A stretch of DNA of 64,000 nt from Candidatus Latescibacterota bacterium (GCA_965203175.1 OZ241867.1:1568001-1632000), one strand, 5' to 3'. Counted from the stretch's first letter, positions 23,760-27,566 are shown. The notes: generated by a model not told the origin, from the sequence alone. Made by a program: numbers and translations.

Positions 23760-23786
23760 TGAACCTGTACTTTCCGGGCGGCGTCT
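23760..23786 (+). promoter_or_regulatory. Candidate ECF-sigma promoter TGAACC-N16-CGTCT
   Basis: TGAACC at 23760-23765, a 16-nt spacer and CGTCT at 23782-23786, about 20 nt upstream of the sigma ATG; matches the AAC/CGT consensus of many ECF promoters. Confidence 0.6.
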
Positions 23787-23805
23787 TTATTTCCAGAGAG
23801 CCTTG

Positions 23806-24405
23806 ATGCAGATACCGGACCCACAACTCATAGCGCAAATAAAAGAACGCGATGAACGCGCATTCCAGCAGTTCTTTGAGCGCTATCGGGAGCAGATCCA
23901 CGATCACGTGCGCCGCATCGTTCGCGACGATGCGAGTGCCAACGATGTAGTGCAGGAGGTTTTCTTGCGAGTGTGGAACCGGGCCGGCCAATGGAGCGGT
24001 CGAGGGGCTGTAGCTGCTTGGCTGTTTAGCATCGCCACTCATCTCTCCCTGACTCACCTGCGCACCGTGCGAAGGCGGCGGGAACAGCGGCTGGAAATGC
24101 TGTCTGAAACCGTGGAGCAGGAGACGCAGCAAGTGCCCGAATGGATGATTGAGGCGGCGTCCGAGCGCCCCGACGCCCAAGTGGAACGGGCCGACCAGCA
24201 GCGCTGGTTGCGGCGACAAGTACAAGAACTGTCCGAGGACAAGCGCGAGGTTTTCCATCTGATCTACGACGCCCAAGTAGAAGTGCGGGACGCCGCCGAC
24301 CGCTTGGGCATTCCCGAAGGCACCGTAAAGTCGCGGCTGCACCACGGCCGCCGCCAACTCTCACAGGCTTGGCAGGCCATCCATAACCCGGAGGAGCATG
24401 AATGA
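23806..24405 (+). CDS. ECF (sigma-70 group 4) RNA polymerase sigma factor
   Basis: Region 2 (AFQQFFERY, DVVQEVFLRVW, WLFSIA) and region 4 (LGIPEGTVKSRLH); likely ATG at 23806. Confidence 0.92.
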   Translation: MQIPDPQLIAQIKERDERAFQQFFERYREQIHDHVRRIVRDDASANDVVQEVFLRVWNRAGQWSGRGAVAAWLFSIATHLSLTHLRTVRRRREQRLEMLSETVEQETQQVPEWMIEAASERPDAQVERADQQRWLRRQVQELSEDKREVFHLIYDAQVEVRDAADRLGIPEGTVKSRLHHGRRQLSQAWQAIHNPEEHE

Positions 24406-27400
24406 CATTGAATCTCGACGTACCTTGGCATAGGGAGTCCTTTGACCTTTTCGTCCACCAGCGACTGCCCCAGCTTTTGGGCGAGCGCTTGCCGCTGGCC
24501 GATTATCAAGTCGAACAACAGGACTCCTATACTTTTTCCATTAAACTGAGCTTGGGACTCGGCGATGCCCCGGTCGAGGTTGAGTACCGAGATTTGCCTC
24601 GGCCCGACCGCGATGGTCTTTTCCACATTGAAGGCAACTACCGGGTCGTGGTCCCCTATCCCGACCGGCGCGAACTCGCTCAAGCGCGGATTCTGTGCGT
24701 GGGCGAGCAGCTCTACGACTTTATTGACCAAAGATTGGAAGCGGCTCCTGAGCAATTGGCTTGGGATGGCGACTTAGTGCGGAGTTGGCTGCCGCTAGAC
24801 GCTTGGATGCGCGACTTCCACTTGGAGGCAACTTCCCAGTACCTCCAGGCGACCAACTGGCTTGACCGCTATACTCATCTGCGGCGGCTGACTTTGATCC
24901 CCATCGTTGACGAGCCTTTTGTCGACCAAGACGTTTTCCCCGACAGCCAATACGGCCTAGTGTGCCCCCACTGCACTCCCGAGGGACCCAATATCGGCCG
25001 AGTGCTAGAAGTAGCCCGCGGTGCCCGCATCCGCGACGGCAAGCTCGAACGGATCGACGAAGCGCCCGACAGCATCTTGGGTTTTTCGGCCTCCATGGTG
25101 CCCTTTCTCGAACACGACGATACCAATCGCGCTCTGATGGGCATCAATATGATGCGCCAGTGGACGAGCGCCGCCGATACCGCGGCACCGGTCCACGCCA
25201 CGGGTTGGTTCCGCCAGCAGCACGATCAGCGCTTGGCCTCCAAGGGCCACAAACCCGAACCAGCCCTAGTGCAGACGGGATACGAGCCGGAGGCCGCCGA
25301 CTTTTGGGGCGGGTACAATCTGCTGACCGCCTTCGTCATGTGGGATGGGGACACGTTTGAGGATGGCTTAGTCATTAGCGAGTCGGCCGCGGCGCGGATG
25401 GACTTTCCCGCCGCAGTGGGGGTGGGCGACAAACTAAGCAACCGCCACGGTGCCAAAGGAGTGGTGGCGCGCATCCTGCCCGACGCCGACATGCCGCAGT
25501 TGCCCGACGGTACGTCGGTAGAGCTCATTTTGAGTCCGACCAGTATGGTCTCGCGGCTCAACTTCGGCCAGCAGCGCGAGGCGGTCATGGGTCGCATTGC
25601 CCGAGCCGAGGGGACTCCGGCGGTGGTGCCGCCTTTCCAAGCACCCAGCGAAAAAGTGTTGAAAGCGCGTCTGGTTGAGGCGGGACTGCCCGAAGACGGC
25701 ATGGAGCAACTGACCCTCAAAGGCGCAAAGCTGCCCTATCGCAGTACCGTGGGTTGGGTGTACTGGGGTCTTCTGGCGGCCCACACTGCGGCCGAGCACT
25801 TGGAAACCGCGGTGATAGGAGTCGGCGGACCAGCGCTCGACATGATGGCCTACGGAGCTTTGAGCGAGGCCGGGGCCGTAGCCAATATCCACGCTTTGTT
25901 CAACACGGCCGCGGCTGAGCGGCCCGACGCCGATGCGCTAGGCCAGCGTTTGGCTTCTGACCCAATATCCCCGTCTCCGCCTCCGTCTCCACGCTTTGCT
26001 CTATTGCAGCAGTTGTTGGGTATGGCCGGGATACGGGCCGAGTTGGCGGGCGGGGCATTGCGCTTTGCCTTTGCCGAGCCGAAGGGATTGACCTTGGCTC
26101 GCCCCGTGTCGCACCCGTGGGCACCGGGACGCCAAGTAGGGACGGTGGGAGATCCCGGCGCTTTGCCTGCGGGGATCGAGTTCGACCCGATTCGAGGCTG
26201 CTACGAGGATTTGGTCGAAGCTAATACGCGTTTGCAGCGCATCATCGATAGCGAAGCGCCCGAGGCTCTGGTCGGGCCAGCAGTGGCACAGGTGACCCAA
26301 CGGGTGGAGGATTTTTTTATCGCGTTGTTGCGCCCGGAGCACCTCCACTTTCAAGCAAGACCGCTGTTTAGCGGCCGGGCCGCGCTTGTCTCTGGTTTTG
26401 AGTTGGAGCTCGACCAAGTGGGCCTACCCGAGGAGATGGCCTGGAATTTGTTCGGGCCTCAGGTAGAGCGGGAGATAGGTCGCGCCGAGGAAGTGGCGCA
26501 GCGTTCGCCCCGAGCGGCTAAGGTTCTGGACGCGATCATGGAGCGCTCGTGGGTGCTGCTGTACAGCGCCCAGCGGGTGCTAGTTGACGATGGCCCGGCG
26601 TCCACCGCAGTGGTGGCCTTTCGTCCGCAGCGTTTGGCCGGGGCCGCAGTGCGCGTCCATCCGCGCATTTGCCGACTGATGGAGCTAGATTTCGACGGCG
26701 ATCAGATCGAGGTGTTTTTGCCCCTCACTGAGGAAGCCCAGGCCGAAGCCGAAACTGCGCTGTCGGTGGCCGGGCACATACAGCGCGACGCGGATATATG
26801 GCGCTACGTGACCGACAACTACCACGGCATGATATGGGGCTTGGCGCAGCTTTGCCGCACGGAGGAAGGCCGCGCCGAAGTGGAACGGCTGACCGGAGTG
26901 GCCGTGGATGGCAGTCGGCTGTTCGTCAAGCACGACCTCAACCGCTTATTAGCTCAGGTGCTGCAGCGCGAGGGCCTAGAGCGAGCACTGGAGGTACTCG
27001 ACCAGCTAACGCGGCGCGGCTTTGAGGTCTGCAAGCAGTCGGGGGCCTCCTTCAATCCCTTCCTCGGTTCGAGCAAGGAGTGGCCTGAGCAACCCGAGGA
27101 AGCCGATTGGGACGAGTGGCAAATGTACAGCGACGAGTTAGTGGCAGCTTTCTACCAGCAGGCCGATTTCGACGACAACGACTTGGGGCCTTTGGCTCTG
27201 TTGTCGCTGTCGGGGGCGCGGGGCAACCAACAGCAGTTGATCCAATACGTGGGCGGCGGTCTGCTCTATCGGGAAGATGGCAGTCTATTCGCTCAGCGCG
27301 GTTGTTGGCGCGACGGCCTGTCGGTAGAGGAAACCAAGGTGCGGGCCCCGCGTGCCTTATGGTGGGGTCTGGCCGCCGCCAACCAGCGCTGGATTGAGGC

Positions 27401-27566
27401 GCAGGAAGCGGCCCAACAGCCCGTCCGTGCCGATTACCACGTTTTGGGCCGGGCCGCCAAGGCCGCGCAGCCGGGCGTAGTCTTTGCTAGAGCGGCTGAG
27501 CGCGGAGAGACCGATCCGCTGACCAGCCTATTCAGCCGGCTCTTTGCAGGGCTACCAGCGAACTAG
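24402..27566 (+). CDS. Miniature single-chain RNA polymerase beta-beta' (RpoB-RpoC)-like fusion protein
   Basis: Ordered RpoB motifs (GLFHIEG..RVVV, THLRR, CP..TPEGPNIG, PFLEHDD.NRALMG.NM.RQ, FEDG, GDKL..RHG.KG, SRLN.GQ) followed by RpoC motifs (SGRA, QVGLP..MA, DFDGDQ, SGARG). ATGA overlap with the sigma gene; GGAGGAG RBS. Confidence 0.9.
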   Translation: MTLNLDVPWHRESFDLFVHQRLPQLLGERLPLADYQVEQQDSYTFSIKLSLGLGDAPVEVEYRDLPRPDRDGLFHIEGNYRVVVPYPDRRELAQARILCVGEQLYDFIDQRLEAAPEQLAWDGDLVRSWLPLDAWMRDFHLEATSQYLQATNWLDRYTHLRRLTLIPIVDEPFVDQDVFPDSQYGLVCPHCTPEGPNIGRVLEVARGARIRDGKLERIDEAPDSILGFSASMVPFLEHDDTNRALMGINMMRQWTSAADTAAPVHATGWFRQQHDQRLASKGHKPEPALVQTGYEPEAADFWGGYNLLTAFVMWDGDTFEDGLVISESAAARMDFPAAVGVGDKLSNRHGAKGVVARILPDADMPQLPDGTSVELILSPTSMVSRLNFGQQREAVMGRIARAEGTPAVVPPFQAPSEKVLKARLVEAGLPEDGMEQLTLKGAKLPYRSTVGWVYWGLLAAHTAAEHLETAVIGVGGPALDMMAYGALSEAGAVANIHALFNTAAAERPDADALGQRLASDPISPSPPPSPRFALLQQLLGMAGIRAELAGGALRFAFAEPKGLTLARPVSHPWAPGRQVGTVGDPGALPAGIEFDPIRGCYEDLVEANTRLQRIIDSEAPEALVGPAVAQVTQRVEDFFIALLRPEHLHFQARPLFSGRAALVSGFELELDQVGLPEEMAWNLFGPQVEREIGRAEEVAQRSPRAAKVLDAIMERSWVLLYSAQRVLVDDGPASTAVVAFRPQRLAGAAVRVHPRICRLMELDFDGDQIEVFLPLTEEAQAEAETALSVAGHIQRDADIWRYVTDNYHGMIWGLAQLCRTEEGRAEVERLTGVAVDGSRLFVKHDLNRLLAQVLQREGLERALEVLDQLTRRGFEVCKQSGASFNPFLGSSKEWPEQPEEADWDEWQMYSDELVAAFYQQADFDDNDLGPLALLSLSGARGNQQQLIQYVGGGLLYREDGSLFAQRGCWRDGLSVEETKVRAPRALWWGLAAANQRWIEAQEAAQQPVRADYHVLGRAAKAAQPGVVFARAAERGETDPLTSLFSRLFAGLPAN

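Follow-up and report, generated by a model that had tools for sequence, protein, structure and literature searches.

An ECF sigma factor gene paired with a single-chain relative of the RNA polymerase core in Latescibacterota and other bacterial phyla

Within a 64,000-nucleotide (nt) stretch of the genome of Candidatus Latescibacterota bacterium (GCA_965203175.1 OZ241867.1:1568001-1632000), which we call the window and whose positions serve as coordinates throughout, a gene for a sigma factor of the extracytoplasmic function (ECF) type is followed by a gene for a 1054-amino acid (aa) protein that resembles the two large subunits of RNA polymerase (RNAP) joined in one chain, here named mini-RNAP (Table 1). 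The genome is 6.58 Mb long and lies on one contig. An earlier interpretation, made without database searches (the sequence-only reading), had noted that the sigma stop codon overlaps the mini-RNAP start codon in an ATGA, that a GGAGGAG ribosome-binding site lies inside the sigma gene, and that oppositely oriented PhyH genes flank the pair. All three features are present in the DNA, both minus-strand flanks giving PhyH domain matches, and the first two suggest translational coupling. The same interpretation let the module begin at 23760, which needs correction, as this is the first base of the -35 element of the promoter. The likeliest sigma start is instead the ATG at 23806, rather than 23760 or the ATG of the longest open reading frame (ORF) at 23626, because the N-terminus from there aligns with 29 homologues and because the conserved promoter would otherwise fall within the sigma gene.

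Table 1. Features of the sigma/mini-RNAP module and its flanks, with window positions and mini-RNAP residues.
Feature	Window position	Mini-RNAP residues	Strand	Remarks
ECF-type promoter of the module	23760..23785		+	-35 TGAAC 23760-23764; 17-nt spacer after GAAC; -10 CGTC 23782-23785; ends 20 nt 5' of sigma ATG
ECF sigma gene, 199 aa	23806..24405		+	sigma-2 and sigma-4 domains
Shine-Dalgarno-like GGAGGAG within 3' end of sigma gene	24390..24396		+	5 nt before mini-RNAP ATG
ATGA overlap of mini-RNAP start and sigma stop (TGA 24403-24405)	24402..24405		+	putative translational coupling
Mini-RNAP gene, single chain of 1054 aa	24402..27566	1-1054	+	beta-like half ~1-550, beta'-like half ~590-1054
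Fork region		131-212		from alignment
Conserved beta segment		211-275		from alignment
First part of beta barrel with acidic pair (Mg-B loop) E320/D321		279-330		aligns with C. thermocellum beta 744-796; 304-327 with host beta 758-781
Junction replacing the whole beta flap	25383..25415	328-338	+	between Mg-B loop and GDK...RHG.KG motif
Part of beta barrel with GDK...RHG.KG (motif 342-353)		338-465		aligns with C. thermocellum beta 932-1060; 339-473 with host beta 1037-1172
Beta C-terminal part		up to ~550
Beta' clamp helices, coiled coil	26175..26327	592-642	+	follow a short hairpin linker; model helices 592-616 and 621-642
Switch 2 and beta' barrel with DFDGDQ		653-830
Catalytic DFDGD of beta'-type double-psi barrel	26688..26702	763-767	+
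F-loop region, SGARGN		from ~927		927-981 aligns with beta' 790-847 of 8k60_D
Bridge helix	27324..27413	975-1004	+	model helix; 50 residues follow
PhyH genes on either flank	22671-23627 and 27580-28428		-	PhyH domain matches

The mini-RNAP matches the Pfam domains RNA_pol_Rpb2_3 (residues 146-210), Rpb2_6 (best stretch 340-455, E 1.2e-31) and Rpb1_2 (736-787, which holds the DFDGD motif). Since the Rpb2 domains precede Rpb1_2, a beta part is followed by a beta' part in one chain. The protein matches rpoB and rpoC models at E values of 6e-47 and 1e-26 and lies far under the equivalog cut-offs (scores of 160 vs 801.15 for TIGR02013 and 93 vs 963.5 for TIGR02386); with the rpoBC-fusion models NF007172 and NF011417 it scores 158.9 vs 5372 and 150.2 vs 4632 bits. 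The host also has ordinary rpoB and rpoC genes at 3.92 Mb (1271 and 1368 aa), so that the mini-RNAP would be an additional polymerase, with ~40% of the length of host beta plus beta' (1054 vs 2639 aa). An AlphaFold2 (AF2) model of the mini-RNAP built with 67 homologues had a predicted local distance difference test score (pLDDT) of 92.5 and a predicted template modelling score (pTM) of 0.89, and a Foldseek search with this model returned bacterial and plastid beta and beta' chains. VIA-align placed model residues 1 to ~470-558 on beta/Rpb2 chains (chain residues ~20 to ~1140), with Z scores of 28-31, 428-529 aligned residues and root-mean-square deviations of 2.2-2.9 Å. We are confident that the predicted fold is that of an RNAP core.

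We mapped the chain by combining the AF2 model with sequence alignments to solved and host subunits, and the map shows which parts of the canonical enzyme have been lost. The beta flap is deleted: ~135 residues of C. thermocellum beta (797-931), or ~255 of host beta (782-1036), correspond to 7-11 residues here. The beta' N-terminus, ~265 residues, is missing, and the alignment starts at host beta' 268-271, at the clamp helices. Nothing aligned past the bridge helix, host beta' being matched only to residue 756 of 1368, so the jaw and the C-terminal clamp are gone. The clamp helices, which align with Streptomyces beta' 340-380 and host beta' 268-299, are retained even though ~60% of beta plus beta' has been lost. 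In bacterial RNAP, sigma region 2 docks mainly on the beta' clamp helices and region 4 on the tip helix of the beta flap.

Residue conservation was counted over 67 diverse members of the family, which share 45-93% identity with the mini-RNAP of the window. The active-site residues D763, D765, D767, E320 and D321 are kept in 64, 66, 63, 59 and 64 members, respectively. In the substrate-binding columns, K344 is found in 56 members (with Arg in another 11), R348 in all 67, H349 in 65 and K352 in 59. The clamp helices are similarly constrained at N608 (65 of 67), R610 (58, plus 7 with Lys), R613 (57), P620 (67) and L623 (66), and their signature positions are identical to those of host beta' and Streptomyces beta'. 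The features that mark two-barrel RNAPs are thus all found, namely the DxDxD motif, a beta-side acidic pair with lysines, the bridge helix and switch 2, and on sequence grounds we assign the mini-RNAP to the relatives of two-barrel (multisubunit-type) RNAPs, outside the canonical rpoB/rpoC equivalogs.

A few positions seem changed relative to E. coli. In by-eye alignments, residue 734 is Pro in 51 of the 67 members and residue 149 is Gln in 34 and Asp in 18; residue 761, just before A-DFDGD, varies between Asn (32 members), Glu (18) and Asp (14). We take residues 734 and 149 to be the equivalents of E. coli beta' R425 and beta D516, positions that we presume to be tied to the choice of substrate sugar or to rifampicin binding. 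The changed positions are leads on substrate choice or drug insensitivity, no more.

The small protein is, by its domains, a member of the ECF (group IV) sigma-70 family. It matches Sigma70_r2 (56.2 bits, 3e-15) and Sigma70_r4_2 (46.7 bits, 2.4e-12), both above cut-off, has no region-3 domain match in Pfam, and passes the ECF superfamily model TIGR02937 (99.7 bits vs a cut-off of 42.9). It passes no NCBIfam equivalog, the best model being NF009168 with 127.2 bits vs a cut-off of 236. In an alignment of 30 sequences the linker of ~25-45 aa between the two domains has an invariant W113, and P111, P122 and E127 are invariant or near-invariant. In the AF2 model of the sigma alone (pLDDT 79.1) the sigma-2 and sigma-4 bundles are ordinary and linker residues 98-121 fall below a pLDDT of 50; a linker that is conserved yet predicted to be disordered in the isolated protein fits a contact with a partner. 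ECF sigmas are usually, though not universally, co-transcribed with an anti-sigma factor. Domain searches gave no anti-sigma match for the partner or the neighbours of this sigma, and the Pfam matches of the partner are RNAP domains only.

We then considered how widely the two genes occur. A word-indexed protein search for mini-RNAP gave 568 matches with E ≤ 0.001 among 8000 candidates scored, the best 120 all having E ≤ 6e-260; among the matches listed, full-length members have ~1000-1100 aa, some rows are shorter fragments, and every named row is a 'hypothetical protein'. An exhaustive search yielded 347 cluster representatives at E ≤ 1e-30, with the family reaching to ~1e-54, where rpoBC fusions of 2200 aa begin. 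Within the phylum, with one genome per species, 66 of 168 genomes encode a mini-RNAP at E ≤ 1e-50. In the genus of the window it is found in 21 of 30 other genomes (22 of 31 including the window's own), and 9 of the 30 have no match at this threshold. In a bacterial collection, 164 stretches encode a relative, of which 79 loci were kept. Their labels are Latescibacterota, Poribacteria, Chloroflexota (Anaerolineae, Ktedonobacteraceae and Herpetosiphonaceae), Planctomycetota, Hydrogenedentota, Moanabacter, Chthonomonadaceae and some 'Gemmatimonadota' bins, which makes at least 7 phyla as counted by record labels if, as we assume, Moanabacter belongs to Verrucomicrobiota and Chthonomonadaceae to Armatimonadota.

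The sigma gene accompanies the polymerase gene across this range. By tblastn, 75 of the 79 loci have a cognate sigma gene upstream and in the same orientation, within 273 nt in 68 of them and 1.3-2.1 kb away, with one inserted gene, in the other 7. Three of the 75 matches are partial (L056 is split, the best segment of L068 covers only the C-terminal part, and L102 is truncated where its contig begins). Four loci gave no sigma match, either by tblastn or by a profile search of six-frame translations: L090 has too little upstream DNA (52 nt) to hold a sigma gene, the RNAP of L052 is N-terminally truncated, and L045 and L103 are considered below. The four-base gene overlap is confined to the window's genus (gap 0 at the same-genus loci), and outside it 9 to 273 nt, or one inserted gene, lie between the two. 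No sigma-RNAP fusion occurs among the 79 loci, as no RNAP ORF matches sigma; by calculation, the long open frames seen in the phylum genomes are out-of-frame overlaps.

When neighbouring ORFs were clustered, the only widely common genes were those for the RNAP (75 loci) and the sigma (68 loci, with crude gene calls); the next cluster, at 19 loci, reflects synteny within one clade. Around the window's own pair, a domain scan of 14 neighbouring ORFs from 12021 to 35898 detected no anti-sigma, phage-like or mobile-element domain; 10 of these ORFs match oxidoreductase, methyltransferase, HisG-like, AstE/AspA, TPR-redoxin or similar families and 4 have no match. The sequence-only reading had proposed a self-contained two-gene system with no anti-sigma or phage genes adjacent, in which mini-RNAP takes the usual place of the anti-sigma, and had named conservation of the gene neighbourhood as a check. 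That check came out strongly positive, and an ECF sigma co-transcribed with an RNAP-like protein, with no anti-sigma conserved, is the arrangement that the loci suggest.

The two genes are also inherited together. Among the 168 phylum genomes, sigma is present at E ≤ 1e-30 in 63 and both genes are present in 62. The four genomes with RNAP only are G136 (a fragment, 750-1053), G146 (truncated), G149 (at a contig edge) and G143 (intact), and in the single sigma-only genome, G156, the contig ends just downstream. Where it was testable, the sigma was never found alone (0 cases). Pairwise distances of sigma and RNAP co-vary across 58 loci with r = 0.97, or 0.73 for pairs more than 30% apart, and none of 999 permutations gave a value as high; this shows co-inheritance at the level of sequence distances, bearing in mind that relatedness alone would give some correlation. 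In an RNAP tree, made by a quick method and rooted at the midpoint only, Poribacteria form one clade and Latescibacterota appear in at least 3 places, which fits mostly vertical descent with some transfer. As judged from these comparative data, the sigma/mini-RNAP pair is a conserved, self-contained module.

One genome, G071, carries two sigma/mini-RNAP pairs (C1:1427408-1431177 and 3367761-3371734), in which each RNAP gene adjoins its own sigma gene. The sigma genes of G083, G091 and G165 have one in-frame stop each (TAA, TAA and TGA); these could be pseudogenes, assembly errors or cases of read-through.

ECF promoters generally have a GAAC-type -35 and a CGT-type -10 element. Exactly one GAAC-N17-NGTC site lies upstream of the sigma gene in 71 of the 75 loci, in several phyla (70 with a 17-nt spacer and one with 16). 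It mostly lies 45-51 nt upstream of the sigma start codon, with the sequence TGAAC(C/T)T...(C)GGTGTC, or TGAACCT...GGCGTC in the window's genus. No sigma-70-type promoter was found on the plus strand ahead of the sigma gene. We regard the conserved GAAC-N17-NGTC site as the promoter of an autoregulated ECF operon, as predicted from its motif and position. A search of the 168 genomes with the 26-nt pattern gave 64 matches vs 34 for a reversed control. Of these, 28 lie directly upstream of a family sigma (coordinates compared by eye, and including a second sigma copy in G150), and the other 36 are at background level. Since no match stands above background beyond the sigma promoters, the detectable regulon is the operon itself.

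Individual extra sites did not reveal convincing targets. The repeated sites in G009 and G010 were rejected, as they fall inside an opposite-strand coding sequence in which a TPR-like motif was recognised by eye, and the extra site in G150 belongs to the second sigma copy. The sole intergenic extra site (on G007:C96; L118, 6049-10074) is followed after ~400 nt by an ABC ATPase gene and another ORF, which looks HlyD-like by eye; its likeness to the sigma promoters extends downstream of the -10 element, and it could be a second target.

The sequence-only reading had also suggested predicting the complex of the two proteins, which we did with the sigma and residues 285-1054 of the mini-RNAP. The score was 0.39 (runs of 0.37, 0.39 and 0.46) vs 0.00 for the best of three controls, with a verdict of 'weak support'; at least 34% of contacts are common to the runs, and the partner pLDDT is at least 62. 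In calibration, 58 of 80 solved complexes passed the mark, as did 2 of 110 mismatched pairs, and the passes with scores at or below 0.60 comprised only 7 of the 80 and both of the mismatches. The pass may also reflect likeness to solved sigma-core complexes. The prediction places the pair above its controls and falls short of a clear pass.

Contigs from RNA libraries (4 runs from 3 studies) cover relatives of both genes at 88-99% identity and bridge the gene junction in X17 (24266-24966) and X19 (24074-24540), and they carry no information on transcription start, strand or level. The bacterium is sponge-associated, and 6 of the DNA-labelled runs that contain the stretch are labelled sponge metagenome.

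The module can be compared with several known systems. It is like a bacterial RNAP core with an ECF sigma (e.g. the M. tuberculosis sigma-H complexes 6jcx and 6kon) in having sigma-2 and sigma-4, double-psi barrels with DFDGD, clamp helices, fork, switch 2 and bridge helix, and a promoter of the GAAC / CGTC type with a 17-nt spacer. It differs in being one chain of 1054 vs 2639 aa with no flap, beta' N-terminus, trigger loop or later parts, in implying no alpha or omega, and in being accessory, patchily distributed and devoid of an anti-sigma. YonO of the Bacillus prophage SP-beta, as far as the available part of its description goes, is likewise a single ~100-kDa polypeptide with a two-barrel active site and no trigger-loop homology, which exists beside the host RNAP (PMC5467207). 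The same partial description sets YonO apart, as it has only very distant homology to multisubunit RNAPs, is phage-encoded and has no sigma partner named there, whereas mini-RNAP, with its rpoB/rpoC matches, clearly descends from bacterial beta and beta', is chromosomal and goes with an ECF sigma.

The yeast killer plasmid pGKL2 encodes Orf6, a 982-aa Rpb2::Rpb1 fusion reported as biochemically uncharacterised, alike in placing the second-largest subunit first, in its similar size and in having ~half of each subunit deleted, and unlike in residing on a eukaryotic cytoplasmic plasmid, in its eukaryotic descent and in having no sigma (PMC2919709). Full-length beta::beta' fusions (NF007172 and NF011417, with 2890 and 2839 positions) have the same order but are complete housekeeping enzymes. 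The non-virion RNAPs of the jumbo phages phiKZ and AR9 lack alpha and omega and use a dedicated specificity factor. These too are reduced, non-canonical beta/beta' relatives, and they differ in being phage-encoded, in consisting of several polypeptides and in using another kind of promoter; no mini-RNAP family member was found in the phage collections searched. Finally, ECF sigma/anti-sigma operons resemble the module in having an autoregulated promoter, the sigma first and its partner immediately downstream and translationally coupled, whereas the partner here lacks an anti-sigma domain and retains a polymerase active site. A full-text literature search, confined to main texts, found no published account of the mini-RNAP family, nor of any ECF sigma that has an RNAP-like protein as its partner, and such a partner goes unmentioned in the main text of an ECF classification (PMC7826278).

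We hypothesize, at a little short of even odds, that the module is an autoregulated operon whose sigma binds the clamp helices and thereby directs an active minimal polymerase. The TGAAC-N17-CGTC promoter would give one transcript for the sigma and the translationally coupled mini-RNAP, the first rounds being made by the host core RNAP, either with this sigma or by read-through. The mini-RNAP would be a catalytically active single-chain beta-beta' enzyme, equipped with two barrels, fork, switch 2, F-loop, bridge helix and clamp helices. Sigma region 2, bound to the clamp helices, would provide promoter specificity, and the two proteins would form a holoenzyme without alpha or omega. The mini-RNAP might also damp the positive feedback, because the same contact would take the sigma off the host core. 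A conserved active site speaks for nucleotide polymerisation by the large protein. Three observations speak for binding of the sigma to mini-RNAP: the beta' half has kept its clamp helices while losing most else, the two genes strictly co-occur, and the sigma linker is conserved. The wider claim that several phyla carry a second cellular two-protein transcription system, with a 1054-aa core that engages its own ECF sigma via the clamp helices alone, with no flap, alpha or omega, is possible, and we lean towards doubting it.

Several observations weigh against the docking of sigma on an active mini-RNAP. No trigger loop was detected in the mini-RNAP, in the AF2 model or in the beta' alignments; the conserved C-terminal 50 residues may hold a vestigial first trigger helix. 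The -35 element is conserved at a fixed 17-nt spacing, yet the beta flap, which is the dock of region 4, and the beta' N-terminus are both absent. A host core supplies such a geometry, so the promoter may be read by the host enzyme. The strict pattern occurs 8 times in the own genome vs 3, 8 and 8 times in simulated genomes; the other 7 sites lie inside ORFs, which leaves the module promoter as the only intergenic match in 6.58 Mb, and a holoenzyme that targets only itself has no obvious output. L045 and L103 have an intact RNAP gene without an adjacent cognate sigma. The predicted complex is weak, with no clear pass. The RNA contigs cover the flanking genes too, so they could stem from carried-over DNA. 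The sequence-only reading had offered two alternatives, of which the first, a dedicated sigma with a mini-core as holoenzyme, fares better: the clamp-helix dock and the conserved catalytic residues speak for it, and the low complex score, the lack of a flap and the lack of any other target promoter speak against it.

The promoter geometry is more readily explained if the sigma is a regulator only, a reading absent from those two alternatives. Together with the host core the sigma would switch on the mini-RNAP, which would then act independently of sigma on another template or substrate, for example on special DNA structures, foreign nucleic acid or RNA, as YonO does. A promoter with canonical ECF geometry in 70 of 71 sites would suit a flap-bearing core rather than a flapless mini-RNAP, the operon as sole conserved target is what one expects of a one-operon ECF regulon, and the two loci with an intact RNAP and no adjacent sigma would cause no difficulty. 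YonO also sets a precedent for transcription by a single-chain two-barrel enzyme without a trigger loop (PMC5467207). This reading leaves unexplained why the clamp helices keep their canonical signature positions, unless they serve another factor, and why the sigma linker is conserved. In addition, an autoregulated sigma that has neither an anti-sigma nor any other brake would stay switched on, the sigma occurs without the RNAP in none of the testable cases, and the complex prediction, though weak, exceeded all three controls. We consider it unlikely, though a serious competitor to the proposed sigma-programmed polymerase.

The retained clamp helices could serve a different end if mini-RNAP were chiefly a mimic of the core that sequesters the sigma and releases it on a signal, in effect a new type of anti-sigma with polymerase activity secondary or absent. 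The operon has the architecture of a sigma/anti-sigma operon, no conventional anti-sigma is conserved nearby, and the complex score above the best control would be expected here too. A chain of 1054 aa would be a costly decoy, however, and members from different phyla, at 40-50% overall identity, still conserve the catalytic Asp, Glu, Lys, Arg and His residues as well as switch 2, the F-loop and the bridge helix, which argues for selection on catalysis. There is also no detectable target besides the operon in a regulon that release would serve. We judge this reading improbable. In its pure form it is the second alternative of the sequence-only reading, a decoy that acts as anti-sigma, and there the conservation of the active-site residues, kept in 59-67 of 67 members, makes it unlikely; a side role of the mini-RNAP in buffering sigma is possible.

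That the module is a decaying phage or plasmid transcription remnant without present function would accord with its patchy distribution (66 of 168 phylum genomes), the broken copies in G136, G146 and G140 and an RNAP tree that requires several phylum changes, but it is very improbable given that most copies are intact frames of 1000-1100 aa down to 42% identity, that no phage or plasmid record covers 80% or more of the protein, that two peptide patterns found no relative in viral contigs, and that no phage or mobile genes lie nearby.

According to the textbook view, a bacterial cell has one RNAP core that is shared by all sigma factors, and to our knowledge small single-chain relatives of multisubunit RNAP have been found only in phages and plasmids, where they are sigma-independent. 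If the sigma and mini-RNAP do form a holoenzyme, it would be an exception to the one-core rule and the smallest known sigma-dependent RNA polymerase. It would show that the flap, the beta' N-terminus, the trigger loop, alpha and omega, all parts of a 400-kDa enzyme, are dispensable for sigma-directed initiation, and would offer a natural model for early or reduced RNAPs. One would then also ask which genes such a system serves in sponge symbionts and in soil and groundwater bacteria, and the pair could provide a compact (3.8-kb) sigma-programmable orthogonal expression system. Should the mini-RNAP instead buffer the sigma as a core mimic, this would be a new mode of ECF control.

The searches of mobile elements behind these assessments were as follows. 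Two peptide patterns detected no relative in 2.9 million viral contigs, and the Poribacteria-type promoter pattern had 0 matches there. In 50,697 phage records, 0 of the 32 matched cover at least 80% of mini-RNAP, as is the case for 0 of the 68 matched among 72,556 plasmid records; in both sets the matches are partial and rpoB/rpoC-like only. The PHROGs matches are generic RNAP or sigma matches only, those of mini-RNAP being two families of unknown function (models of 1191 and 1216 positions) and 'RNA polymerase beta subunit' families. Among the defence models of PADLOC-DB 2.0, mini-RNAP matched 0 families and the sigma gave two marginal matches (E 0.002).

Stages of decay can be seen in the genus of the window. 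G136 has a deletion of the sigma gene and RNAP codons 1-749 (C1:3422268-3424364, L119), and G146 (L052) has an N-terminally truncated RNAP and no sigma. In G140 (L056) the sigma is split in two frames, and in G143 (L045) the RNAP is intact and the sigma is gone. A comparison with five genus genomes in search of an empty site found the upstream PhyH flank kept only in G136, which shows a deletion rather than an empty site.

At the downstream end of the window's module, the stop codons of mini-RNAP and the convergent PhyH gene are 13 nt apart (27566-27580) with no terminator-like site between them, so that, unless something else stops it, module transcription would continue into PhyH in the antisense direction. 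Terminator-like sites numbered 7 vs 4.8 +/- 2.9 expected, with none after the RNAP stop.

In one Latescibacterota clade (L069, L070, L079, L086, L092, L093 and L099; e.g. L092:1379-12329) the module is part of a longer row of genes on the same strand. The row encodes, in order, a 345-aa DksA/TraR C4 zinc-finger protein, a 315-aa protein without a Pfam match, the sigma, an insert, the mini-RNAP, a BlaI-like repressor and a BlaR1 (M56) protein with TonB_C repeats. The insert encodes either an ABC exporter of 597 aa or a 381-396-aa protein, of which the L099 copy (396 aa) has no Pfam match, and the promoter motif of the row stands directly before the sigma gene. DksA-type fingers bind RNAP in other systems.

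Lastly, other clusters of the ESM Atlas join Rpb2_6 and Rpb1_2 in one chain. These proteins are 1221-1787 aa long, have feature scores of 0.85-0.92 and are mostly labelled 'hypothetical protein', and there may be further kinds of fused or reduced RNAPs beyond the mini-RNAP family.

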